Source: Candidatus Saccharimonadota bacterium
Lineage (GTDB): Bacteria > Patescibacteriota > Saccharimonadia > Saccharimonadales > Saccharimonadaceae
Length of the DNA: 32,000 bases
Assembly: GCA_025349965.1 (NCBI GenBank)
Contig: CP075337.1
Coordinates: 480,001 to 512,000, forward strand
Reading direction: 5' to 3'
Positions within the stretch are counted from its first letter, which is position 1. Each line of letters opens with the position of its first letter. A program made the translations under genes and the position numbers. Below are positions 1 through 21,637 of the stretch, piece after piece. Below the pieces are notes generated by a model. That model was given only the letters and a program-made list of their open reading frames with translations. It searched no databases and was not told the origin of the DNA.

Positions 1-3000
1 GATGGCGACACCGTCTGGAATGGCACCTTGGAGAACAGCGACAGGGGAGGACTTGTTGGTCATTGTGCCGTCGCCAAGCTGGCTGGAAGTGCCAAGACCC
101 CAACAATAGGCTTTATTGTCGGAGGCAAGGGCGCAGGTGTGGCTACCACCGGCTGTGAGTTGGCGGATGGTAGTGCCGGCCGGAATGGCTCCCTGGAGAA
201 CAGCGACAGGGGAGGACTTACTGACCGTAGTGCCGTCGCCAAGCTGGCTGGAGGTGCCAGCTCCCCAGCAGTAGGCCTTGTTGTCGGAGGCAAGGGCGCA
301 GGTGTGGCTAGCACCAGGCGCAAGCTGGCGGATGGTAGTGCCGGCTGGAATGGCCCCCTGGAGAACAGCAACAGGGGAGGATTTGTTGGTCGTTGTGCCG
401 TCGCCAAGCTGGCCGGAGGTGCCAGCCCCCCAGCAGTAGGCCTTGTTGTCGGAGGCAAGGGCGCAGGTGTGGTTGGTACCCGTTGCAAGCTGGCGGATGG
501 TAGTGCCAGCCGGAATGGCACCCTGGAGAACAGCAACAGGGGAGGATTTACTGACCGTTGTGCCGTCGCCAAGCTGGCTGGAGGTGCCAAGACCCCAGCA
601 GTAGGCCTTGTTGTCGGAGGCAAGGGCGCAGGTGTGAAGATTACCGTTAATAACCTGCCGGATAGTAACACCGGCTGGAATGGCCCCCTGGAGAACGGCG
701 ACAGGGGAGGATTTGTTGGCCGCTGTGCCGTCGCCAAGCTGGCTGTAGGTACCATTTCCCCAGCAGTAGGCCTTGTTGTCGGAGGCAAGGGCGCAGCTGT
801 GGCTACCACCGGCCGTGAGTTGGCGGATGGTGGCACCGTCTGGAATGGCACCCTGGAGAACAGCGACAGGGGAGGATTTGTTGGCCGTTATGTCAGCTCC
901 CCAGCAGTAGGCCTTGTTGTCGGAGGCGAGGGTGCAGGTGTGGCTATTACCGGCTGTGAGTTGGCGGATGGTAGTGCCAGCCGGAATGGCACCCTGGAGA
1001 ACAGCAACAGGGGAGGATTTACTGACCGTTGTGCCGTCACCGAGTTGACCATTTGTGTTTGTACCCCAGCAATAGGCTTTGCTGTCGGAGGCGAGGGTAC
1101 AGGTGTAGTTAGAGCCGATGGTAACTTGCCGAAAGGATACACTAGTCAAAACTTCAGCCGGATAGAATTTACTAGTAGTTGTACCGTCGCCAAGCTGGCC
1201 AACACTGTTATACCCCCAGCAATAGGCTTTATTGTTAGCTGTAAGGGCGCAAGTATGATTGATGCCGGGTATAATGCGACGAATCGTAACTCCGGCTGGG
1301 ATTTCACCCTGAGAGACGGCGACGGGAGAGAATTTGTCATCTGCGGTACCGTTACCAAGTCGACCGTTTGCATTCTGCCCCCAGCAATAAGCTTTGTTAT
1401 CGGAAGCGAGGGTACAGATGTAGCCAACGCCAGCAGTAAGCTGCCGAATGGTGGCACCGGCTGGGATTTCACCCTGAGAGACGGCGACGGGAGAGAATTT
1501 ATTGACAGTCGTGCCGTCGCCGAGCTGACCTGATGTATTCTGCCCCCAGCAATACGCCCTGTTGTCGGAGGCGAGGGCGCAGGTATTATGCCCCCCTGCT
1601 GTGATTTGCCGAATCGCAACTCCGGACGGGATAGCCCCCTGGAAGACAGCAACAGGAGTAACTCTATTGGTACTAATACTACTACCGCCGGCCTGTCCGT
1701 AGGCGTTATACCCCCAGCAGTAGACTTTATTATCGGAGGTAAGTGCACAGGTGTGGCTAGAGCCGGCTACAAGTTGCCGAATCGTAACTCCGGCTGGGAT
1801 TTCACCCTGAGAGACGGCGACAGGGGAACTCTTTTGAATAGTCGTACCGTCACCTAGCTGACCGTAATTGCTATACCCCCAGCAATAGATTTTATTATCT
1901 GAAGCGAGGACACAAGTATAGTTAACCCCGGTTACAAGTTGCCGAATCGTAACTCCGGCTGGGATTTCACCCTGAGAGACGGCGACAGGGGAACTCTTTT
2001 GAATAGTCGTACCGTCACCTAGCTGACCGTTTCCGTTATTCCCCCAGCAGTAGACCCTATTGTCAGAGGTGAGAGCGCAGGCATGAGTACTGCCCGCAGA
2101 TACATTCTTAAGATACGGCCACCGCGTCTTATCATAAAGGCTATTCACGCTTACCGGCGTTCTCGATGCAGTTGTATCCCCGCGACCAAAGCGCCCCTCT
2201 AGATTTGCGCCCCAGCAATATGCCTTTTCTTGGCTCGTCAATACACAGACACTGCCATTCATAGCTGAAACTTGTGTAACTATTGCACCATCAGGTATTT
2301 CACCTGATGAAATTGACACAGGGAGCGTTCGCGTTGTTGTTGAGCTATCGCCAATCTCACCATTTCCATTGAATCCCCAGCAATACACCCTACCAGTCGT
2401 TGAGACTGCACAGGTTGACCGCCCCGAAACCCCATTACCACTTGCAGAGATACTATCAATCATAGTATCTTTCGCTTCGATATCTGCAAAATTAACAAGT
2501 GTAGGGGAGTTTGAGTTTGTAACATCGTTCAGGGCTTTTCCAAGCTTTCCATCGGCACCACTCCCCCAGCAATAGGCCTTGCTGTCTGTTGTTACGGCAC
2601 AGGTATGCCCCCAGCCTAAAGACAGCTGGGAGACGCGAGCAGTCGCCGCCATAGCACCTTGAGCAACTGCCGCGGGCACCGAGGTATTTGCAACACCTCC
2701 CGTTCCGAGACGTCCGCTATCACCGGCGCCCCAGCAATAGGCCTTATCGTTTGAGGCAATCATACAGGTTTGCTCGGTACCGGTTTCAATTTGGAGCGCG
2801 GTACTTCCAGCAGGGGTAGCACCTTGCGCAACAGCGACCGGGGCATTCTTCTGAACAGTAGTGTTATCGCCAAGCTGTCCGTAGTTATTGTAGCCCCAAC
2901 AGTAGGCTTTGTTATCAAACCCAATTGCGCATGTATGATAGAACCGCGTGGATATCTGAGATACTTGCATTGCCGCAGCGGGGCGGCTACCTTGCGCAAC

Positions 3001-3300
3001 GGCAACCGGAGTATTTCGCTGCGTAGTTGAGCCGTCACCAAGCGTACCGTTGGTATTAAAACCCCAACAATACGCTTTGTTGTCAGAGGCAATGGCGCAC
3101 GTTGTGTCACGACCAGCGGTAATCGAGAGTATCGTCGCATCTTGCGGCATTGCTCCGCGCGCCACTGCCGTCGGAGTGGTGCGCTGCGTCGTCGTACCAT
3201 CACCGAGTTGTCCATATGTATTCAGACCCCAGCAATACGCCTTGTTGTCAGAGGCAATGGCGCACGTATGTGTCACTCCTTGCGAAATCTGTCGCCACGA
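1..3300 (-). repeat. Coding tandem repeat array, unit about 165 bp (55 codons), about 20 units
   Basis: The conserved Trp codon (cca on the plus strand) recurs at 100, 265, 430, 595, 760, 901, 1066, 1216, 1381, 1546, 1714, 1879, 2044, 2212, 2377, 2566, 2731, 2896, 3064 and 3229. Spacing is mostly 165 bp, with in-frame variants of 141, 150, 168 and 189 bp. A perfect 98-bp duplicate occurs at 1768..1865 and 1933..2030. Confidence 0.9.
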
Positions 3301-3795
3301 AAGTTCAATACCCGGGTTTACATCCGTGACCGTATCTTGTAGCCGCATCACTGAACTATACGACTTCCACACCTCGCCGGTACTTGAGCGTGTACGCTCC
3401 GTAAACCCCTTTACTTTCACGGTACTAATATCCCCGGCAATATCAGGGCCTGCAGCAACTTCAAACCGAGTACGTACATTCGGCGTATCAACGACATAAC
3501 AATCAGGGCCAGCACACTGATCGCTTGAGCCGTAACAATCACCACCAGGGCGAAGCGTCTGGTCCCATGTTAAGTAGCCGTCTTCAATACAAGAGCGCGC
3601 CATTTGCAATCCGGCCTCAGAAGCCTCCTTCGCAAGCTGGCTATAGTACTGGTTTTGTAGCGCAACGCGCGAAGAGTTAACCGCACCTACGGCGACAGTG
3701 AGCATCGTCAGCAAAATCATCGAAGCAATCAAAACAGTAGGGAGCGCAAAGCCCCTAGAAGATTTCCCACCAAAAACACTCCGAATCTTTTGCAT
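1..3795 (-). CDS. Giant surface protein, 3' partial: PilX-like (type IV minor pilin-like) N-terminal hydrophobic domain followed by about 20 RCC1/beta-propeller-type repeats
   Basis: Absent from the ORF track because there is no stop codon inside the window. I translated the minus frame (codon first bases at positions divisible by 3) from ATG 3795 to base 1 and found no stop. N-terminus: MQKIRSVFGGKSSRGFALPTVLIASMILLTMLTVAVGAVNSSRVALQNQYYSQLAKEASEAGLQMARSCIEDGY. A 55-aa unit then repeats, e.g. WGAGTSGQLGDGTTTNKSSPVAVLQGAIPAGTTIRQLAPGASHTCALASDNKAYC, which matches the RCC1 signature (CWG..GQLGDG...HTCA). Upstream on the minus strand: TGcTACAAT at 3817..3809. Confidence 0.9.
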   Translation of the reverse strand, partial: MQKIRSVFGGKSSRGFALPTVLIASMILLTMLTVAVGAVNSSRVALQNQYYSQLAKEASEAGLQMARSCIEDGYLTWDQTLRPGGDCYGSSDQCAGPDCYVVDTPNVRTRFEVAAGPDIAGDISTVKVKGFTERTRSSTGEVWKSYSSVMRLQDTVTDVNPGIELSWRQISQGVTHTCAIASDNKAYCWGLNTYGQLGDGTTTQRTTPTAVARGAMPQDATILSITAGRDTTCAIASDNKAYCWGFNTNGTLGDGSTTQRNTPVAVAQGSRPAAAMQVSQISTRFYHTCAIGFDNKAYCWGYNNYGQLGDNTTVQKNAPVAVAQGATPAGSTALQIETGTEQTCMIASNDKAYCWGAGDSGRLGTGGVANTSVPAAVAQGAMAATARVSQLSLGWGHTCAVTTDSKAYCWGSGADGKLGKALNDVTNSNSPTLVNFADIEAKDTMIDSISASGNGVSGRSTCAVSTTGRVYCWGFNGNGEIGDSSTTTRTLPVSISSGEIPDGAIVTQVSAMNGSVCVLTSQEKAYCWGANLEGRFGRGDTTASRTPVSVNSLYDKTRWPYLKNVSAGSTHACALTSDNRVYCWGNNGNGQLGDGTTIQKSSPVAVSQGEIPAGVTIRQLVTGVNYTCVLASDNKIYCWGYSNYGQLGDGTTIQKSSPVAVSQGEIPAGVTIRQLVAGSSHTCALTSDNKVYCWGYNAYGQAGGSSISTNRVTPVAVFQGAIPSGVAIRQITAGGHNTCALASDNRAYCWGQNTSGQLGDGTTVNKFSPVAVSQGEIPAGATIRQLTAGVGYICTLASDNKAYCWGQNANGRLGNGTADDKFSPVAVSQGEIPAGVTIRRIIPGINHTCALTANNKAYCWGYNSVGQLGDGTTTSKFYPAEVLTSVSFRQVTIGSNYTCTLASDSKAYCWGTNTNGQLGDGTTVSKSSPVAVLQGAIPAGTTIRQLTAGNSHTCTLASDNKAYCWGADITANKSSPVAVLQGAIPDGATIRQLTAGGSHSCALASDNKAYCWGNGTYSQLGDGTAANKSSPVAVLQGAIPAGVTIRQVINGNLHTCALASDNKAYCWGLGTSSQLGDGTTVSKSSPVAVLQGAIPAGTTIRQLATGTNHTCALASDNKAYCWGAGTSGQLGDGTTTNKSSPVAVLQGAIPAGTTIRQLAPGASHTCALASDNKAYCWGAGTSSQLGDGTTVSKSSPVAVLQGAIPAGTTIRQLTAGGSHTCALASDNKAYCWGLGTSSQLGDGTMTNKSSPVAVLQGAIPDGVAI

Positions 3796-3898: not shown

Positions 3899-4177
3899 AT
3901 GTCAGACACAAATAATAACGACGCAAAAGTAATTGTTTACCGCACAAGCTGGTGTGCTTTTTGCCACACTGAAATGCAGTGGCTTGAGCGCCTTGGCGTA
4001 AAGTATGTCGCTAAAGACATCGAAGAAGACGAAGAGGCTCACAAGGAGCTTATGCAGAAAATCAATGGCGACTTCCGCGGCGTTCCAGTAACCGACATCG
4101 CTGGAGATATCATTCTTGGCTTTGACCGTCCTAAACTCCAAGACTCGCTTAAAAATCATGGGCTCGCCGCTGCCTAA
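3899..4177 (+). CDS. Glutaredoxin/NrdH-like small thiol-disulfide oxidoreductase
   Basis: 92 aa with a thioredoxin-fold pattern: VIVYRTSWCAFCHTEMQWL (CxxC = CAFC) and GVPVT in the C-terminal part. GAGG lies 8 nt upstream of the ATG. Confidence 0.85.
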   Translation: MSDTNNNDAKVIVYRTSWCAFCHTEMQWLERLGVKYVAKDIEEDEEAHKELMQKINGDFRGVPVTDIAGDIILGFDRPKLQDSLKNHGLAAA

Positions 4178-5030
4178 CACGGCGGCTCGGACAGTACGTC
4201 CGGCTCATCACACAAAAGCACCAGAAACTCCTCTGGTGCTTATTCATGGGTTTAGAGGCACGAAACAAGGGCTTCAACTTATAGGCAAAGAACTCTCGAC
4301 TATCGGGAAGGAGAACACTACTTCATACAGTCTTCTTGCACCCGACCTTCCGGGGTTTGGTCGTGGAGCACACCTTCCGCAGTACACGCTCGACGCATAC
4401 GTTGAATGGCTTCACGGCTACATGGTAGGCGTCCAGAAAAAATTCCCCCGCAAGAAAATAACACTCCTTGGACATTCATTTGGGAGTATTATTTGCGCAG
4501 CCTACGCATCAAAATACCCAAAAACCATCGGTAAACTTATTCTCGTTAACCCGATCGCCACACCGGCACTAGAAGGCCAAAAGAAACTTCTCACAAATTT
4601 AGCTATTTTATACTACAAGATTGGTGCAAAACTTCCCGAAAAAGCCGCAAAACCATGGCTTGCATCACCACTGATTGTCAGGATTATGAGTATTGCCATG
4701 ACAAAAACAAAAGACCCGGAGCTTCGTAAGTTTATTCATGCACAACATGATCAATATTTCAGTCGATTTCATAGTCCAAGTTCAGTTCTTGGGAGCTTTA
4801 AGACATCAGTAAGTCATACTGTTGGCGAATATGCCGCGACTATTCCCGTTAAAACGCTCCTTATTGCTGGCTCCATCGATGACATTACACCACTTAGCAA
4901 CCAATTCGGCTTAGTTAAAAAGTTTCCAGATGCAAAGTTAAAAGTAATCGATAACGTCGGGCACCTTACTCATTACGAAACGCCACACACCGTAGCGGAG
5001 CATGTTCACACTTTTGTTAAGTCTGTATAG
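4116..5030 (+). CDS. Alpha/beta-fold hydrolase
   Basis: LVLIHGFRGT oxyanion region, GHSFGS nucleophile elbow, and a C-terminal GHLTHYE histidine region. The start is uncertain: TTG 4116 is preceded by GGAG at 4103..4106, and ATG 4158 is the alternative. Confidence 0.8.
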   Translation: MALTVLNSKTRLKIMGSPLPNTAARTVRPAHHTKAPETPLVLIHGFRGTKQGLQLIGKELSTIGKENTTSYSLLAPDLPGFGRGAHLPQYTLDAYVEWLHGYMVGVQKKFPRKKITLLGHSFGSIICAAYASKYPKTIGKLILVNPIATPALEGQKKLLTNLAILYYKIGAKLPEKAAKPWLASPLIVRIMSIAMTKTKDPELRKFIHAQHDQYFSRFHSPSSVLGSFKTSVSHTVGEYAATIPVKTLLIAGSIDDITPLSNQFGLVKKFPDAKLKVIDNVGHLTHYETPHTVAEHVHTFVKSV

Positions 5031-9731: not shown

Positions 9732-10479
9732 AGCACTCTTTCCAGATATTGAGTGGAGTAAACCCGAACAGCGTTCGCATGCCGGGCGTCTTGGTATTAT
9801 TGGCGGCAATAAGCTTGGCTTCGCCGGTGTTGCCGAAGCCTATGGTGTTAGCCTTTCTACTGGAGTTGGGGAAGCACGTGCACTCCTGCCGGATGCACTA
9901 AAGACCACTCTCCCAAAAACAATTCTTGATACCCGTTTTGCGCCAACAAATGTTTCAGGCAGTCTCTCTAAAGAAGCGCTCCCGACCATGCAAGCACTCG
10001 GCGCCTGGGCGCAGAGCGTACTCTTGATTGGAGATGCCGGACGCAGCAGCGAAACCGCCATTGTCTACGAAGAATTTGTTAAAACCTATACCGGCCAGCT
10101 CGTCATTACACGAGATGCCGTTGATCTCGTCAAAAACTCCGCCAACGTCCTTCTTGAACGTCCCGATACACTCCTCGTCGTTTCGTTCGCGCAACTCCAA
10201 AAGCTCTTTCAGTCTGTCTATTACCCAAAGGTGCTCACATTTAGCATGCAACTGACAAATCTTGTTGAAGCGCTTCATAAATTCACTATTACATACCCCG
10301 TTAGTATCGCTGTTCTTCACCGCGATACACTCATCGTTGCGTCAAATGGTGAAGTCACCTCAACTGCCTGGGAAAACCCAATGGCAATTTGGCGTGGCAC
10401 AATTGCCGCTAAAGCTGCGGCATATTGGCTCTGGAATCCAGCCAAGCCCCTTGAGGCAATCACGACGAGTCTTATCTAG
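9691..10479 (+). CDS. YjeF C-terminal/carbohydrate-kinase-like protein (possible NAD(P)H-hydrate dehydratase homolog, divergent)
   Basis: GRLGIIGGNKLGFAGVAEAYGVSLSTGVGEARALLP resembles the GGS..Y.GA...AA.R.GAG motif of YjeF_C. The C-terminal GDxL motif is not evident. GTG start is preceded by GAGGGGAAGAG and overlaps the HAD gene by 41 nt. Confidence 0.5.
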   Translation: MQNHSYWRTQTPTKALFPDIEWSKPEQRSHAGRLGIIGGNKLGFAGVAEAYGVSLSTGVGEARALLPDALKTTLPKTILDTRFAPTNVSGSLSKEALPTMQALGAWAQSVLLIGDAGRSSETAIVYEEFVKTYTGQLVITRDAVDLVKNSANVLLERPDTLLVVSFAQLQKLFQSVYYPKVLTFSMQLTNLVEALHKFTITYPVSIAVLHRDTLIVASNGEVTSTAWENPMAIWRGTIAAKAAAYWLWNPAKPLEAITTSLI

Positions 10480-10492
10480 CACCCGCTAATTG

Positions 10493-10501
10493 TGCTATAC
10501 T
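10493..10501 (+). promoter_or_regulatory. Extended -10 box TGcTATACT upstream of tRNA-Leu
   Basis: Read directly, 22 nt upstream of the tRNA 5' end. Confidence 0.5.
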
Positions 10502-10523
10502 ATGACTTGCGTTACACACCTAT

Positions 10524-10610
10524 GCCGCGGTGGTGGAATTGGTAGACACGCGAGACTCAAAATTTCGTGTCCTTACGGACGTGCCGGTTCGATTCCGGCT
10601 CGCGGTACCA
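10524..10610 (+). tRNA. tRNA-Leu (anticodon CAA), type II with long variable arm, CCA encoded
   Basis: Folded by hand. Acceptor GCCGCGG/TCGCGGT, D stem GTG/CAC, anticodon stem CGAGA/TTTCG with loop CTCAAAA, variable arm GTCC-ttac-GGAC, T arm GCCGG-TTCGATT-CCGGC, then A-CCA. Confidence 0.95.
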
Positions 10611-10620
10611 GATAGTAATT

Positions 10621-10647
10621 AAATCGTCTTTTTAGGCGATTTTTTTA
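10621..10647 (+). terminator. Intrinsic terminator after tRNA-Leu
   Basis: AAATCGTC-ttttta-GGCGATTT hairpin followed by ttttt. Confidence 0.55.
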
Positions 10648-10829
10648 ATTCAACAGATAATAGACAGGGCATGTAGCATACAGACACAACGCTCTCAAAA
10701 TATATAAAATGCATACATACCTTATATATTTTGAGCATTACCCAGTACAAGCAAGAGCAAGAAGGTTACCCTGAGACAAAAAACGCAAACTATTGTACAA
10801 TAAAAGGGAAAGAATACAGATTAAAGTAT

Positions 10830-12203
10830 ATGAATCCTAATAGTCAAAGCCAGGGTGGGGGCTTCACAGGAGCGCCGAATAATCAGACTCCTGTTCAGCC
10901 AGCCCAGCAGAACCCCCAAACGCAATCTTCTGCAGCTCCCGCACAGCGTGAAGCAACTATTAATGTGTTGCGCACTCAAATCGACTCACTTTACGGCGAC
11001 AACCCTGTCACAGACCAGCAGGCTGTTCATGCCGCACAGGCCCAACAAACACATGCACCGACCCAGCAAAACACTCAGCCTCAACAGGTGGCAGCTGCAC
11101 ACAGCGTACTTGATCAAACCGCACTTCAGCAGAATCTCGACGATGCCAGCAACCCGTACAACCGCTCCATAGGTGACTCTCAAAAGCAGACTTCAATCGA
11201 TCCAAAACAATGGAAAGACTACCATTCAGCATGGCAAGATTATTACCAAAAATACTACGCCGCCTATTACGCACACCAGGATGCACAAAAAGAACAGCGC
11301 AAAAAAGACGTGTCCCAGGCGCTTGAGCAGAGTACCGAGCAAACACAGCCGCAAGCAATCGGCTCCGCACCACTAGAACAGCCGCAGGCAGCACCTCAAG
11401 AAAGTGCCGAAGATATCTCCAAGGCGCAAGCAATGCAAGAACTGCGCAATCGTCTCTTGGGCAAGGTTAAAGACCGTGCCCAGAAGGTGCGCAAAAGCCG
11501 CCACTTTATGCCCATTGCAGCCGCGCTTGTCGTTATTCTTATTTTCGTATTCATTCAATACAACCGGGTCTTCATAGCAACCGTAAACGCATATGTATCT
11601 CCAGGCTCCATCGACCCACAAAATATTGTCATCAACCCTGCTAGCAACGGAGTTGTTGGTGAAGAATCTCGGCTTATTATTCCAAAAATTAATGTTGACG
11701 TACCCGTTCTGTACGACGTCGGCGCTGACCATAACTCACAAATGGATGCCATGGAGAAGGGGGTTGCTCACTTTGCAATCCCTGGCGCTAAAAGCCATCC
11801 CGGTGAAAAAGGAAATACCGTTCTTTCTGGTCACAGTAGCAACGACCTCTTCGATAAGGGTGATTACAAGTTTATTTTCGCACAACTCGATAAACTCACC
11901 GACGGTGATACAATCTACGCTAACTACAAGGGTAAGCGCTATACGTACGTTGTAACACGAACGGAAGTCGTAAAGCCAACGCAAGTAGATAAGCTCGTAT
12001 ACCCAACTGACAAGCCAATTATGACACTTATTACCTGTACTCCACTTGGTACATCTCTTAACCGACTCCTCGTTACTGCGGAGCAAATAAGTCCAGACCC
12101 AGCTGAAGCGACCACAGCACCCGCTACAGGAGATACAGAAGCAGAAGCGCCAATGCCAGGCAACTCGGCAACCCTCCTTGAGCGTCTATTTGGGCGTCGT
12201 TAA
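10830..12203 (+). CDS. Sortase (transpeptidase) with Gln/Pro-rich N-terminal region and a single TM anchor
   Basis: TM FMPIAAALVVILIFVFIQY. Catalytic triad context VLSGHS (His), TLITCTP (Cys) and NRLLV (Arg). I prefer ATG 10830 (MNPNSQSQ...) to the TTG at 10731, which lies inside an AT-rich inverted repeat. Confidence 0.85.
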   Translation: MNPNSQSQGGGFTGAPNNQTPVQPAQQNPQTQSSAAPAQREATINVLRTQIDSLYGDNPVTDQQAVHAAQAQQTHAPTQQNTQPQQVAAAHSVLDQTALQQNLDDASNPYNRSIGDSQKQTSIDPKQWKDYHSAWQDYYQKYYAAYYAHQDAQKEQRKKDVSQALEQSTEQTQPQAIGSAPLEQPQAAPQESAEDISKAQAMQELRNRLLGKVKDRAQKVRKSRHFMPIAAALVVILIFVFIQYNRVFIATVNAYVSPGSIDPQNIVINPASNGVVGEESRLIIPKINVDVPVLYDVGADHNSQMDAMEKGVAHFAIPGAKSHPGEKGNTVLSGHSSNDLFDKGDYKFIFAQLDKLTDGDTIYANYKGKRYTYVVTRTEVVKPTQVDKLVYPTDKPIMTLITCTPLGTSLNRLLVTAEQISPDPAEATTAPATGDTEAEAPMPGNSATLLERLFGRR

Positions 12204-12218
12204 GTAGATAATAAATCT

Positions 12219-13676
12219 TTACTCAAGAATCATGCGCACGCGCTGTAAACCAAGGCCCTTGTCGGTCTTAGCAACGGCATACATAAAGCGGCCATTTTGG
12301 CTAAGTGTCGCATCAAATCCGACGGCAACTGGCATAATAGCTTGGGTATTCGTACCATCAAAATCACGCATACGAAGAGTGTCACTCGCGTCAGTCCATA
12401 GATGAGCTGCATCAAGCCAAAGAAGCGGTCGAGATGTGTCCCGTGTTGCAGTTGAGCTCCGCTTATACTCAATCTCATATGTCGCAAGTTGACCACCCGC
12501 TTGTGCAGCCACATACTCGCCACTTGGGCTAAACGAAAGCACGTCTACCGTCTGCGCCGTAGAAAAGGTAGCGAATTGCTTAAGGCTCGCAATAGTGCTT
12601 TGCGCCTGAGCGCTCGGATACGCGCCCTTGAGGACTGTTACGCGGCTACCTTCGGCAATTGCTACATAATCACTGCCAAAGTACTCGCTGGTAGCAATAG
12701 AAAGTGGCACATCTTTCTTAACTTCACGAAGTACACTTGATGCCTCATCACCATCACGGTACACGCCCACCAAATGGGTTTCTGGCTTATCTGGATTTGT
12801 ACCATTGTATACAAGTACCTTTGTTGAATACATCTGGAATCGCTCAACATTCGTCACGAATGCGCGAGACATACTTCCAGCACCCAAATCAAGCTTACGA
12901 ATCACGCCATCGTTCGTTAAGCCGTAAAGGGAGGAGCCATTAGTGCCTGCGAATTGTAAGTCCTTAAAATCGACGTTGAGAAGGCGAGTCACGTTCACTG
13001 AACGGGCTACATCCTGGGTATCAAGCACAATCCATTCGCGCTTACCTGAAAATTCATGACTAATGAGCACGTGTCGACTTGGTGTATTCCAGCGAACAAT
13101 ACTAAAGACGTGCCCAGCATCGGCTACGTCCGGTTCGCTATACAGCGTCGTTGGAAGTGTAAGTAGCTGGCTCTTTACTGTTTCGGAGCGAAGGTCGATA
13201 GAATGAAATGATGGATCGTGGGCAGCCTCATGCGCAACAGCCCATTTAAGATCAGGTGAAAATTCTAGCTGCGTCAAAGCACCATACTGCGCCACAGTTT
13301 GAGGCTTTCGCTCTGTCGGCACGAGACGAGTGTAATTAAGCCATGTGAGCGTACCCGGTTCAATTGTGAGTGTTCGAGACCAATCTTCGTACCCAGCCTT
13401 CTTCATAACAACAGTGTGTGTCCCAGCCACAACAGCCTGCTTAGTTGCCGTCCTTCCGCCAACCTGTCGGTCATCCACATATACATCAGCGCCATTTGGC
13501 CGTGAGTCAAACTGGAGCAGTGCACCTTGCTGCAGTGTGCCATTATTGCTATTAAGGCGATAGCCCAGCATTGAGAGGACTGCAATCGTTACGATAATAG
13601 CAACCGCCGCCGTTGCTAAAGATGAGAGAATAACGCGACGAATAATAAATTGTTTACGGGTAGGTTTCTTAAACAT
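12219..13676 (-). CDS. PEGA domain-containing membrane-anchored protein with C-terminal beta-propeller-like region
   Basis: N-terminal TM ILSSLATAAVAIIVTIAVL. PEGA-like FDSRPNGADVYVDDRQVGGRTATKQAVVAGTHTVVMKKAGYEDW. TGgTATACT (13694..13686, minus strand) lies 9 nt upstream of the ATG. Confidence 0.75.
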   Translation of the reverse strand: MFKKPTRKQFIIRRVILSSLATAAVAIIVTIAVLSMLGYRLNSNNGTLQQGALLQFDSRPNGADVYVDDRQVGGRTATKQAVVAGTHTVVMKKAGYEDWSRTLTIEPGTLTWLNYTRLVPTERKPQTVAQYGALTQLEFSPDLKWAVAHEAAHDPSFHSIDLRSETVKSQLLTLPTTLYSEPDVADAGHVFSIVRWNTPSRHVLISHEFSGKREWIVLDTQDVARSVNVTRLLNVDFKDLQFAGTNGSSLYGLTNDGVIRKLDLGAGSMSRAFVTNVERFQMYSTKVLVYNGTNPDKPETHLVGVYRDGDEASSVLREVKKDVPLSIATSEYFGSDYVAIAEGSRVTVLKGAYPSAQAQSTIASLKQFATFSTAQTVDVLSFSPSGEYVAAQAGGQLATYEIEYKRSSTATRDTSRPLLWLDAAHLWTDASDTLRMRDFDGTNTQAIMPVAVGFDATLSQNGRFMYAVAKTDKGLGLQRVRMILE

Positions 13677-13838
13677 TCTCTAAAGAGTATACCAAATTAC
13701 GGTGAAAATTCCCTTAAAACATGAATCAGGCTTGCATAAGCACGATAATCGCACTACTATAGAAGATAAGTAATTGGTGGGTACGTCTTTACTCCTACTA
13801 TTTATAGAACTGTGAAACCTGCGAGGAATCAACATACA

Positions 13839-14939
13839 ATGGCATCAAACAACACCATCACAATTAATGGGCGCGAGTACGACGCAAAGACGGGCCTTCC
13901 TGTCGCATCAACCGGAGCGCCACGCCCCGAAGCGGCTCGCCCTAAAACAGCGAGCCGACCAGCGGCAAAGCGCCCAGCGCCTGTGGCAAGCCCTAAGACT
14001 CCAGCCTCGGCCCGAGGCGTTCAGGCTGCGAAGGCTGTTCACAGCTCAGCCCCAAAGCGCTCTGAAACACTTCGGAGGCAGGCGGTTAAAAAACCTGTTG
14101 CACCCACAAAAGTAGTACGCAAAACTAAACCATCTGGCACTCGCCACATGGATATTGCTCGAAGTACTCAAGTAACAAAGTTTGCACCGCACCCTGAAGC
14201 TGCCGTTGCAAAAAAAGCACCGACATCCGCAGCGACGCATATCCGCCCAGCACAAACTAAGAAAGCGGTGCAGGCAGATGCACCAGCCGTAGCACACCCT
14301 ATCGCACGAAGGGCAGTTCTTAAGCAGGCTCAGACAAAAACAAAACCTGTAGCAAAGACTGTCAGCGCCAAAGAGGTAAAGGAAGCACAAATTAAAAAGG
14401 CTCTCTCTGCGAAAGCAGTACCTCAATCCAAGAAGCAGACAAAAGTAGCAAAGCAAAGCAGCAAAAAGAAAGCACCTTCACTCTGGAAGAAGCGCACCAT
14501 CATCCTTACAGGAATTGCCGTCGTCGCACTTCTTGCAGTACTCGCAGCGACCCACATCTTCCCGGGACTTAGTGTACAAGTTGCCTCAATCCAGTCCGGC
14601 GTTAATGCATCATATCCAAAGTACATTCCTGACGGATATTCACTCTCACAGCCAATCCGAACCGGTGACGGAAAAATTGCCATCACCTTCAAATCAAACA
14701 GCAACGACACAAGCTATACACTCACGCAGTCAAGTAGCTCATGGGATTCAACCGCCGTTCTTGATAATCTCGTTAAAAAGGAAGCGGATAATAATTACGT
14801 CACTACACGCGAGCGCGGACTCACTATCTACACCTACCAAACCCATGCGGCATGGGTAAACGGTGGCATCCTCTACACCATCAATGGCAGCGCCGATCTT
14901 TCGGGTGACCAAATCCGCAAAATCGCTACGAGTTTATAG
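13839..14939 (+). CDS. Membrane-anchored protein: Lys/Ala/Pro-rich N-terminal tail, one TM, DUF4367-like C-terminal domain
   Basis: I prefer ATG 13839 because GAGGA lies about 10 nt upstream. TM IILTGIAVVALLAVLAATHIF. C-terminal PKYIPDGYSLSQPIRTGDGKIAITFKS...LTQSS pattern. The domain call is from memory, not from a search. Confidence 0.65.
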   Translation: MASNNTITINGREYDAKTGLPVASTGAPRPEAARPKTASRPAAKRPAPVASPKTPASARGVQAAKAVHSSAPKRSETLRRQAVKKPVAPTKVVRKTKPSGTRHMDIARSTQVTKFAPHPEAAVAKKAPTSAATHIRPAQTKKAVQADAPAVAHPIARRAVLKQAQTKTKPVAKTVSAKEVKEAQIKKALSAKAVPQSKKQTKVAKQSSKKKAPSLWKKRTIILTGIAVVALLAVLAATHIFPGLSVQVASIQSGVNASYPKYIPDGYSLSQPIRTGDGKIAITFKSNSNDTSYTLTQSSSSWDSTAVLDNLVKKEADNNYVTTRERGLTIYTYQTHAAWVNGGILYTINGSADLSGDQIRKIATSL

Positions 14940-20858: not shown

Positions 20859-21353
20859 CTAATGATGATACTCATGTGTTAACGCGTGCCCCTTGCCACG
20901 CCGAAGGAGATAAACATTAACAGGAAAGGCTATAATAAAGGCCGCAGCAAGTGAAGCAAGACGACTTATCCAATAGATAGGGTGGGTTAGGTCTTTATCC
21001 ATAGCACCAGGCACGGAAACCATAACGATATTGTCAACGATTGTCATCGTTAAGATAGACAGGGTATCGGCAGCGAATACAAGCCGTAAGGCCTTATGGA
21101 AGGGTAGCTTCGCGCGCAATAGAGGCAGGGTGGAGACGGTGTATCCCGAAACAAACGATAACACAACCGCGAGAAGTATCGTCATGTGTGGCTCAAATCC
21201 AAGATGCGTACCAATCGTTACGCCAACCATTTCACCAATTGCACACCCAATAAGACAGTGGAGCGTTGCGCTCAGCGCCATACGCTTAGACACTACTGTA
21301 TGGTGCCCGTGATGCTTGTGTTGGTGATGCGCATGTTCATCTGAATGATTCAT
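20859..21353 (-). CDS. DUF4396-family integral membrane protein with His-rich termini (putative metal homeostasis)
   Basis: N-terminus MNHSDEHAHHQHKHHGHH, conserved LHCLIGCAIGE motif, about 4 TM segments, C-terminus HALTHEYHH. The start overlaps the upstream repressor stop (TAATG). Confidence 0.7.
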   Translation of the reverse strand: MNHSDEHAHHQHKHHGHHTVVSKRMALSATLHCLIGCAIGEMVGVTIGTHLGFEPHMTILLAVVLSFVSGYTVSTLPLLRAKLPFHKALRLVFAADTLSILTMTIVDNIVMVSVPGAMDKDLTHPIYWISRLASLAAAFIIAFPVNVYLLRRGKGHALTHEYHH

Positions 21354-21637
21354 TATTTCCCCCTAATATTATTCAACTCGTAGAGTTTTAAAAGCTCATC
21401 AACTGCCTTTAGCTGAACCTCGTTATCAGTGGAGGCCATGTCGGCTGCGATATGTGTACGTAGATGGTTTTCCAAAACCAGCTTATTAAGCGAGGCGAGC
21501 GATTTCTGTAGCGCTAAGCTCTGCACGAGAATATCCATACAGTATTCATCTTCTTTTATTTGCTTTTCTAGGGCTTTCATCTGACCCTGAATAATCTTTG
21601 TTCGGTGCAATGCACGTTTCTTCAATGCTTCAATCAT
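21353..21637 (-). CDS. CsoR/RcnR/FrmR-family metal-sensing transcriptional repressor
   Basis: 94 aa all-helical protein. RTKIIQGQMKALEKQI..DEYCMDILVQ...LENHLRTHI gives an x-C-H-H ligand fingerprint (Cys in EYC, His in ENH, His four residues later). Confidence 0.8.
   Translation of the reverse strand: MIEALKKRALHRTKIIQGQMKALEKQIKEDEYCMDILVQSLALQKSLASLNKLVLENHLRTHIAADMASTDNEVQLKAVDELLKLYELNNIRGK

Follow-up and report, generated by a model that had tools for sequence, protein, structure and literature searches.

A probable modular minor pilin carrying three tandem RCC1 propellers in a Candidatus Saccharimonadota genome, and its family of carriers

The open reading frame (ORF) described here lies at the left end of a stretch of 32,000 nucleotides (hereafter, the window) from the genome of a Candidatus Saccharimonadota bacterium (assembly GCA_025349965.1, contig CP075337.1, positions 480,001 to 512,000 of the forward strand), where it occupies positions 1 to 3795 of the minus strand. 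We think that it probably encodes a modular type IV minor pilin of the PilX2 type, in which a carrier of about 170 amino acids (aa) is followed by three tandem seven-bladed RCC1 propellers, and which would work as a host adhesin at the pilus tip. A first-pass annotation of the window, made from its letters alone, had already put forward a type IV pilus tip or minor-pilin adhesin, a proposal now supported by homology with PilX2 and by the co-location of some relatives with prepilin genes.

Relationship with PilX2 of Nanosynbacter lyticus

The protein PilX2 of Nanosynbacter lyticus TM7x (TM7x_02980), described by Grossman et al. (bioRxiv 2024, PMC11623550; ISME J 2025, PMC12206443), is a minor pilin whose gene belongs to a locus of five pilins; its signal peptide is non-canonical, and it bears a hepta-bladed RCC1 beta-propeller. 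Deletion of pilX2 lowered host binding by TM7x from 10.6% to 4.6%, a value as poor as those of the pilA2 and pilB2 deletions (PMC11623550), and a role as a tip adhesin, possibly glycan-binding, was proposed (PMC11623550, PMC12206443). The first-pass annotation had called the window protein a plausible host-binding determinant of uncharacterised function; the first half of this statement is supported by the pilX2 deletion, whereas the second is out of date, PilX2 having been studied experimentally (PMC11623550).

Sequences of the PilX2 type were reached through the genome-specific part of the PilX2_Up_R primer (supplement of PMC12206443), which was searched against metagenome contigs and matched eight of them. 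In one of these (L086), the matching region runs up to the start codon (ATG) of an ORF of 576 aa, with three small prepilin genes before it and a 142-aa major pilin after it; this ORF is taken as pilX2 from the name and position of the primer together with the matching description, and the contigs belong to TM7x-like strains, not necessarily to TM7x. The resulting protein starts with MMRKKDG↓YSLVLIV (the arrow marks the predicted junction, here and below), has seven CWG blades and ends in ...NRYIY. Its N-terminal domain matches the profile of the window family, which includes the window sequence, over the full length of the profile (98 bits, E 3e-32). Moreover, BLASTP aligns PilX2 with the window protein collinearly from residue 11 through the first propeller, with 28% identity and an E value of 1e-56. 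Because of this profile match and this collinear alignment, the window protein can be regarded as a PilX2 homologue in both its carrier and its head.

Reading frame, propellers and carrier module

Translation of the minus strand from the ATG at 3795 to base 1 gives 1265 codons without any stop. This ATG is the earliest ATG, GTG or TTG after the in-frame stop, which lies 17 codons upstream, and the start peptides of the closest relatives resemble that of the window ORF, L001 beginning with MQKTMFARGGVQRKGFALPT. A scan for sigma-70 promoters upstream of ATG 3795 returned nothing convincing for the gene. The first-pass annotation was correct about the open frame of 1265 codons and also about its absence from the program-made ORF list, which is due to the frame running past the left edge of the window; in addition, the N-terminal sequence that it quoted and the stretch DCYGSSDQCAGPDCY (aa 86-100) match the translation exactly. 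The encoded product consists of a 170-aa N-terminal module followed by RCC1 blades, of which 20 are complete and the 21st is truncated, and its GAST content (44%) falls inside the published range of pilins. Its parts, all on the minus strand, are the following:

1..3795, minus strand: whole ORF within the window, 1265 codons, with the C-terminus beyond the left edge and about 56 aa probably missing by comparison with locus L009
3751..3795, minus strand: leader MQKIRSVFGGKSSRG, aa 1-15, with four basic and zero acidic residues, ending in Gly15, the predicted prepilin-peptidase cleavage site
3679..3750, minus strand: hydrophobic alpha-1N segment FALPTVLIASMILLTMLTVAVGAV, aa 16-39, with Thr, not Glu, at +5; GFALPTVLIAS is invariant or nearly so in relatives
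3583..3744, minus strand: continuous 54-residue helix, aa 18-71, with the conserved QYY.QLA..A.EAG...A..C, modelled with a pLDDT of 93-97 over its span
3496..3591, minus strand: Cys-containing loop, aa 69-100 (C69, C87, C94, C99), part of the folded N-terminal domain
3274..3477, minus strand: four-stranded antiparallel beta-sheet in the structural models, strands at aa 107-113, 125-135, 142-155 and 164-174
2209..3285, minus strand: RCC1 propeller 1, blades 1-7, aa 171-529, the most diverged (mean mutual identity 39%) and collinear with the PilX2 propeller
1063..2208, minus strand: RCC1 propeller 2, blades 8-14, aa 530-911, mean blade identity 53%
1..1062, minus strand: RCC1 propeller 3, blades 15-20 and a partial 21st, aa 912-1265, a 165-bp tandem array with 79% protein and 80% DNA identity

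Long antisense or out-of-frame ORFs also occur inside the RCC1 array of positions 1-3795, such as one of 501 aa at 28-1533 on the plus strand; they are most likely by-products of a GC-rich repeat and not genes.

The Pfam scan of the window protein detected WD40_RLD (PF25390; E 4.5e-226, 750 bits), RCC1 (PF00415; 19 stretches, 518 bits) and RCC1_2 (PF13540; 20 stretches, 503 bits), with RCC1-type repeats extending from about aa 170 to the end of the translated ORF. Counting of the [YF]CWG motif revealed 20 complete blades, in most cases 55 aa apart although the spacing varies from 47 to 63 aa, and a 21st of which the initial 32 residues fall within the window. Blade 16 is short by 8 aa. Both results bear out the approximately 20 RCC1-type blades of 55 aa that had been noticed at first pass. 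A hidden Markov model (HMM) built from the window blades found RCC1 blades in 84 of the 304 family members introduced below, and the complete RCC1-bearing members show 7, 14 or 21 CWG motifs at lengths of about 550, about 940 and 1346 aa, respectively. Since the counts in relatives are quantised in this way, we infer that the window blades are grouped in sevens, and the earlier suggestion of roughly three 7-bladed propellers is supported by this series and by an orthologue with 21 repeats. The latter is found in locus L009 (JASGMG010000006.1, a contig of a Patescibacteria metagenome-assembled genome, MAG), where a complete, unannotated ORF of 1346 aa (9992-14032) with 21 RCC1 repeats ends in ...NVGWFNF. 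Residues 11-1265 of the window protein and 4-1290 of the L009 protein are collinear, with 40% identity over 1299 columns. As this syntenic and collinear protein has 21 blades, the window copy is probably short by only about 56 residues, which would cover what is left of blade 21 together with a short tail.

A very unlikely explanation of the whole array is that of an assembly artefact or a decaying gene, with the 165-bp array collapsed or chimeric and the real gene being shorter or broken. Blades 15-20, 80% identical in their DNA, and the 8-aa deletion in blade 16 would fit such a case, and so would the two closest relatives (L001 and L002), which end at contig breaks within the array, and the split tandem copy of L021. 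On the other hand, the 1265 open codons contain no frameshift, the protein is collinear from end to end with the complete L009 protein, whose gene occupies the equivalent place on the chromosome of a different genus, and an identity of 80% is low enough for short-read assembly.

Regarding the history of the array, no lag-7 signal was found in the blade identities, and the only periods reported by TRF were 165 and 330 bp, so a recent duplication of whole propellers was rejected. The gradient of similarity along the protein, the lack of a lag-7 signal and the 165/330-bp periods are altogether consistent with individual blades having been amplified or homogenised recently at the distal end. The GC content also increases along the gene: the carrier has 51%, propeller 1 has 53% and propeller 3 reaches 61%, compared with 48% for the rest of the window (3796-32000). 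This rise may reflect either a Gly/Ala-rich composition or GC-biased gene conversion among homogenised blades. Each RCC1 blade has exactly two cysteines (H-T-C ... Y-C-W-G), and the 44 of the protein correspond to four in the carrier and two in each of the 20 blades; the presence of two per blade suggests an extracytoplasmic propeller whose blades have one disulfide each. The nearest solved structures to propeller 1 are those of UVR8 (E 5e-41), HERC2, RPGR and RCC1.

As for the carrier, 24 uncharged residues (F16-V39) come right after the predicted cleavage site. Two AlphaFold2 models of the N-terminal domain were obtained, the first from an 81-sequence alignment (pLDDT 85, pTM 0.73) and the second without the hydrophobic helix, and both were confident (overall pLDDT 85-86, pTM 0.73-0.78). 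Residues C69, W77, L81 and C87 are invariant in all three family alignments, and G89 is invariant in two of them and reaches at least 90% in the third. The Cys-rich stretch that the first-pass annotation had taken for a linker is present; however, it forms the loop between the helix of aa 18-71 and the sheet of aa 107-174, and the modelled fold together with the family-invariant residues indicate that it is part of a single folded N-terminal domain instead of a linker. The lack of Glu5, noted at first pass as well, was borne out, position +5 being Thr in the window protein and in 96% of the family.

The carrier family and the nature of its N-terminal module

A search with aa 1-171 revealed relatives that share an invariant GFALPTVLIAS and differ in their C-terminal part. 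Scanning of species-representative genomes gave 77 family loci, nearly all of them in Saccharibacteria, the best match to the window being 61-62% identical. The plasmid collection contained no match, and a metagenome scan with six N-domain peptides found no relative. An exhaustive profile search returned thousands of representatives, among which most of the best 150 start with the family motif, and its output includes contaminants that match repeat columns of the profile. From a set of 304 members, chosen by a loose regular expression that constrains some positions by construction, a common layout emerges: a leader of 3-47 aa (median 12), net positive in 95% of the cases, a Gly (84%) or Ala (16%) at position -1, the residues F-A-L-P-T, about 22 more hydrophobic residues and then a helix of the type R..L..QYY.QLA..A.EAG...A..C. 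Several genomes have at least two copies of the family, some of them in tandem. In L021, the second tandem member is split into a 126-aa carrier fragment (12278-12658) and a separate RCC1 ORF of 530 aa (12941-14533), likely as a result of a frameshift or pseudogene, or of an assembly error within the repeats.

What follows the carrier is variable. Among 82 representatives of 300-800 aa, the heads correspond to RCC1 (35 cases), Gly_rich_2 (17), phage tail Collar (6; Gp10_C, 5), ConA-like Laminin_G_3 (6), Ricin-B lectin (5), PA14 (4) and NHL (3), with one or two cases each of SBBP, Toxin_R_bind_N, Fibrinogen_C, fn3 and CBM_4_9 (a single case for the last one), and short family members are mostly Collar-headed. 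The heads of the family are therefore mostly binding modules, many of them for carbohydrates. In this line, a member found in a pilin operon (L019, 9995-12280) has a ricin-B lectin, a beta-trefoil, inserted in its RCC1 propeller (aa 443-594), which is direct evidence that the family includes heads able to bind carbohydrates. Nearly all complete members, whatever their head, end in Tyr or Phe, as seen for the PilX2 of the TM7x type (...NRYIY; L086, 4600-4647) and for the L009 protein (...GWFNF; 13990-14032); this aromatic residue could be either a strand that closes the propeller or a signal for sorting or assembly. Some members bear labels other than Saccharibacteria: one of 276 aa is assigned to Gulosibacter macacae, from the Actinomycetota, the phylum to which the hosts of Saccharibacteria belong, and another one is carried by a 3.7-kb contig binned as Dongiaceae (L039), both of which may be contamination or mis-binning. 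A further member in a Thermoleophilia MAG (L077) suggests that the carrier also exists in Actinomycetota.

The location of some relatives points to a minor pilin. In three loci (L014, L019 and L021), a family member is encoded in a same-strand run with canonical GFT[LA][IV]E prepilin genes, and the product of one of these neighbours passes the N_methyl gathering score and bears a ConA-like lectin head. In L077, the GFALPTVLIA member (10007-10816) follows a major pilin and is near genes for PilC-, PilD- and PilM-like proteins, recognised by their N-terminal sequence only, in an apparent type IV pilus cluster. Sequence models gave a similar, though fainter, picture. Pfam and NCBIfam scans of the window protein and of its first 160 aa retrieved only sub-threshold matches on the pilin side (Tad, E 0.22; NF007660, the E. 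coli YgdB-type prepilin N-terminal model, E 0.0013). NF007660 is weakly matched by 33 of 38 family members (best E 5e-05), N_methyl by one of them (E 0.049), and the other recurrent weak matches in this set of 38 are to GspK, ComGG, GspI, PilV and GspJ, all of them minor pilins or pseudopilins. Moreover, the JGI annotation labels several family members as "Tfp pilus assembly protein PilX" or "PilV".

A number of observations weigh against a minor-pilin adhesin. The Pfam scan of the window protein gave no PilX_N (PF14341) match at E <= 10 and no N_methyl match (PF07963 / IPR012902). Five of the 38 relatives reach PilX_N, the best at a sub-threshold E of 0.0096, and the NF007660 match of the window protein scores 19 bits for a cut-off of 86. 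A profile of the 38 N-domains had no match at E <= 10 among PDB sequences, and Foldseek comparison of both N-domain models with the PDB found no pilin. Thr at +5 and Pro at +4 are unusual for pilins. The 28 kb of the window to the right of the gene contain no prepilin motif or pilus-assembly gene, and about 65 of the 77 family loci lack a canonical prepilin within 10 kb. In TM7x itself, thin pili persist without PilX2, SignalP 6 gave no PilD site in PilX1 or PilX2 according to the authors of the study, and they did not demonstrate the physical presence of PilX2 in pili (PMC11623550). Finally, the window protein lacks its C-terminus and its repeat array, inside which L001 and L002 both break, could be mis-assembled.

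The top Foldseek matches of the N-domain models were VirB8-like (E 0.15-0.2, TM about 0.2), and an identity of this domain as VirB8, TraE or NTF2-like was rejected, with E values of 0.15-0.5, TM about 0.2 and a probability of at most 0.21.

Formal membership of the N-module among pilins is thus not proven, and a minor-pilin nature is indicated at the sequence level by four independent lines, namely the weak matches of the NF007660 type, the JGI names, the co-location with prepilins and the homology with PilX2. The PilX_N-type N-terminus of the first-pass annotation holds as a pilin-like layout, supported by PilX2, by the prepilin neighbours and by the weak NF007660 match, and fails, at threshold, as membership of the Pfam family PilX_N, which the window protein did not match. 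Glu5 is likewise absent from GspK-, PilX- and ComGG-type tip subunits.

Many of the points just listed would also fit an adhesin anchored to the membrane independently of any pilus, where an uncleaved signal anchor with type II topology displays the three propellers and the resemblance to pilins is ancestral only. We consider this explanation unlikely, even though the lack of Glu5, of a pilin HMM match at threshold and of a pilin fold match, the orphan locus without pilus genes and, for PilX1 and PilX2, the missing PilD site in SignalP and the thin pili of the pilX2 mutant (PMC11623550) are in its favour. An ordinary anchor, however, would not retain a near-invariant G/A-F-A-L-P-T junction at a set position when the leader before it varies from 3 to 47 aa; some family members are co-operonic with true prepilins, and the recurring weak matches are all to minor pilin or pseudopilin models. 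Moreover, the pilX2 deletion phenocopies those of pilA2 and pilB2 in host binding (PMC11623550).

Still less probable, in our opinion, is a factor similar to PilY1, which would dock on the minor-pilin tip complex or prime it, and would be associated with the pilus without being polymerised or processed as a pilin. The authors of the PilX2 work raised this possibility (PMC11623550), PilY1 has a seven-bladed propeller too (PMC11623550, PMC8179133), and the head of the window protein is very large. Nevertheless, the Pfam scan detected no PilY1/PilC-type domain in the window protein, which, unlike PilY1, has a pilin-like N-terminal helix with Gly at -1, and the RCC1 propellers belong to a different family from that of PilY1.

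Under the preferred explanation of a tip-located minor pilin, the basic 15-residue leader and the 24-residue hydrophobic segment would insert the precursor into the membrane, and the prepilin peptidase would cut after Gly15 to leave Phe as the new N-terminus. Residue 5 is Thr and not Glu, a replacement of the kind known from GspK-, PilX- and ComGG-type subunits, and the protein would therefore be placed at the extreme end of the pilus. The subunit would join PilV/PilW-like minor pilins encoded elsewhere in the genome, to be pushed outward by polymerisation of the major pilin. The three propellers (21 blades, about 1150 aa) would then project from the tip and bind a ligand on the host surface, most likely a cell-wall glycan, so that the epibiont is tethered; this binding step is suggested by the homology with PilX2 and the lectin-rich repertoire of heads.

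Genomic context and comparison with known systems

The propeller gene adjoins a divergent gene for a glutaredoxin:

3899-4177, plus strand: glutaredoxin gene

A minus-strand ORF at 3902-4180 was rejected as a gene, as it has no Pfam match and the real gene is the plus-strand glutaredoxin. Housekeeping and envelope genes occupy the right-hand 28 kb of the window. Besides this glutaredoxin, they encode an alpha/beta-hydrolase, GT4, SmpB and Xth, then the sortase-domain and PEGA proteins described below, GltX, a two-component system and RF1/PrmC, and they include polysaccharide genes. This orphan slot is conserved in L001, L002, L009 and L081. In L081 (8001-8549) and L082 (6187-6735), the slot beside the divergent glutaredoxin holds a carrier-only member of 182 aa, with the hydrolase, GT4 and SmpB nearby and an ATP synthase operon and a Dus gene downstream of it; the heads at this position consequently range from none (182 aa, L081) to three propellers (window). 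The L009 locus resembles that of the window in its SmpB, Xth, sortase and PEGA neighbourhood, in a different genus. The two differ in the spacing of the blades, all 54-55 aa in L009 versus 47-63 aa in the window protein, and in a canonical small pilin gene found 5.4 kb downstream in L009, whereas the 32 kb of the window contain neither a prepilin motif nor a pilus gene.

The sortase-domain protein, of 490 aa with the domain at its C-terminus (10731-12203, plus strand), and an adjoining 485-aa PEGA protein (12219-13676, minus strand) form a gene pair that is kept adjacent in L001, L002 and L009. Anchoring of the propeller protein by a sortase (LPXTG) was considered because of this nearby gene and appears unlikely from the L009 protein, the C-terminus of which comes just after the last blade without a sorting signal. 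Farther to the right, a gene for a CsoR-type metal-sensing repressor (21353-21637, minus strand) lies directly upstream of that of a DUF4396 membrane protein (20859-21353, minus strand), and both genes (20859-21637) probably form a small unit that responds to copper.

Among the central questions still open for Patescibacteria is the way in which ultrasmall epibionts recognise their hosts and keep hold of them, and to our knowledge PilX2 is the sole pilus-linked adhesin candidate tested so far in this group. Proteins with a PilX-type carrier joined to an RCC1 propeller have already been published, as has their part in host binding, whereas the triple-propeller form, the 7/14/21 series, the orphan slot with variable heads and the family-wide G↓FALPTVLIAS signature were not found in the searchable literature. 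The results described here place the design of PilX2 as one point in a large modular family, where a single conserved carrier is combined with many lectin-like or phage-fibre-like heads. In this family, the size of RCC1 heads increases in steps of a whole propeller, from one to three, and the members found at a conserved slot outside pilus operons range from a carrier with no head to one with a triple propeller. The family supplies concrete candidates for determinants of host range, and its G↓FALPTVLIAS signature finds carriers where the standard pilin signatures fail. A far-reaching and rather doubtful extension would be that G↓FALPTVLIAS proteins are the main host-recognition repertoire of Saccharibacteria, similar to the interchangeable receptor-binding proteins of phages. 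The slot would then be a site for the swapping and growth of heads, selection would hold the amplification of blades to multiples of seven, and the type of head or the number of propellers would set the host range or the avidity.

Among known systems, the closest is PilX2, which shares with the window protein the homologous carrier, the Gly at -1, the lack of Glu5, a seven-bladed RCC1 head and the phylum; the C-terminal aromatic residue of PilX2 is also common in the family, the C-terminus of the window protein itself lying beyond the edge. PilX2 has a single propeller in 576 aa, in contrast with three in at least 1265 aa, its junction is G↓YSLVLIV instead of G↓FALPTVLIAS, and its gene is part of a five-pilin operon and not of an orphan locus beside a glutaredoxin gene. 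The modular type IV pilins PilB and PilC of Streptococcus sanguinis, with a vWA and a lectin head, respectively (Raynaud et al. 2021, PMC8179133), follow the same general plan of a small pilin carrier with a bulky grafted binding module, a proposed display at the tip and a monoderm-type envelope. They have, however, a Glu5 and a canonical class III signal peptide recognised by IPR012902, a signature that does not recognise the FALPTVLIAS family, and neither of their heads corresponds to the three propellers of the window protein. As the survey of Raynaud et al. required IPR012902 (PMC8179133), it would have missed this family.

The pilins and pseudopilins GspK, Pseudomonas PilX, ComGG and E. 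coli YgdB (NF007660) likewise combine a Gly at -1 with a hydrophobic alpha-1N helix and no Glu5. Compared with these Glu5-less tip subunits, the window carrier gives matches below the curated cut-offs and no fold match, and its FALPT motif is specific to the Saccharibacteria family. Another large adhesin, PilY1 of Pseudomonas aeruginosa, occurs in association with the pilus tip and has a seven-bladed propeller (PMC12206443, PMC8179133), but it is not a pilin and its propeller is of another family. Lastly, the eukaryotic RCC1-like propellers of UVR8, the HERC2 RLD, RPGR and RCC1 show clear sequence homology to each of the window propellers (E 5e-41 to 1e-20). The eukaryotic proteins have single, intracellular propellers without two cysteines per blade, whereas those of the window protein are in tandem and extracytoplasmic.

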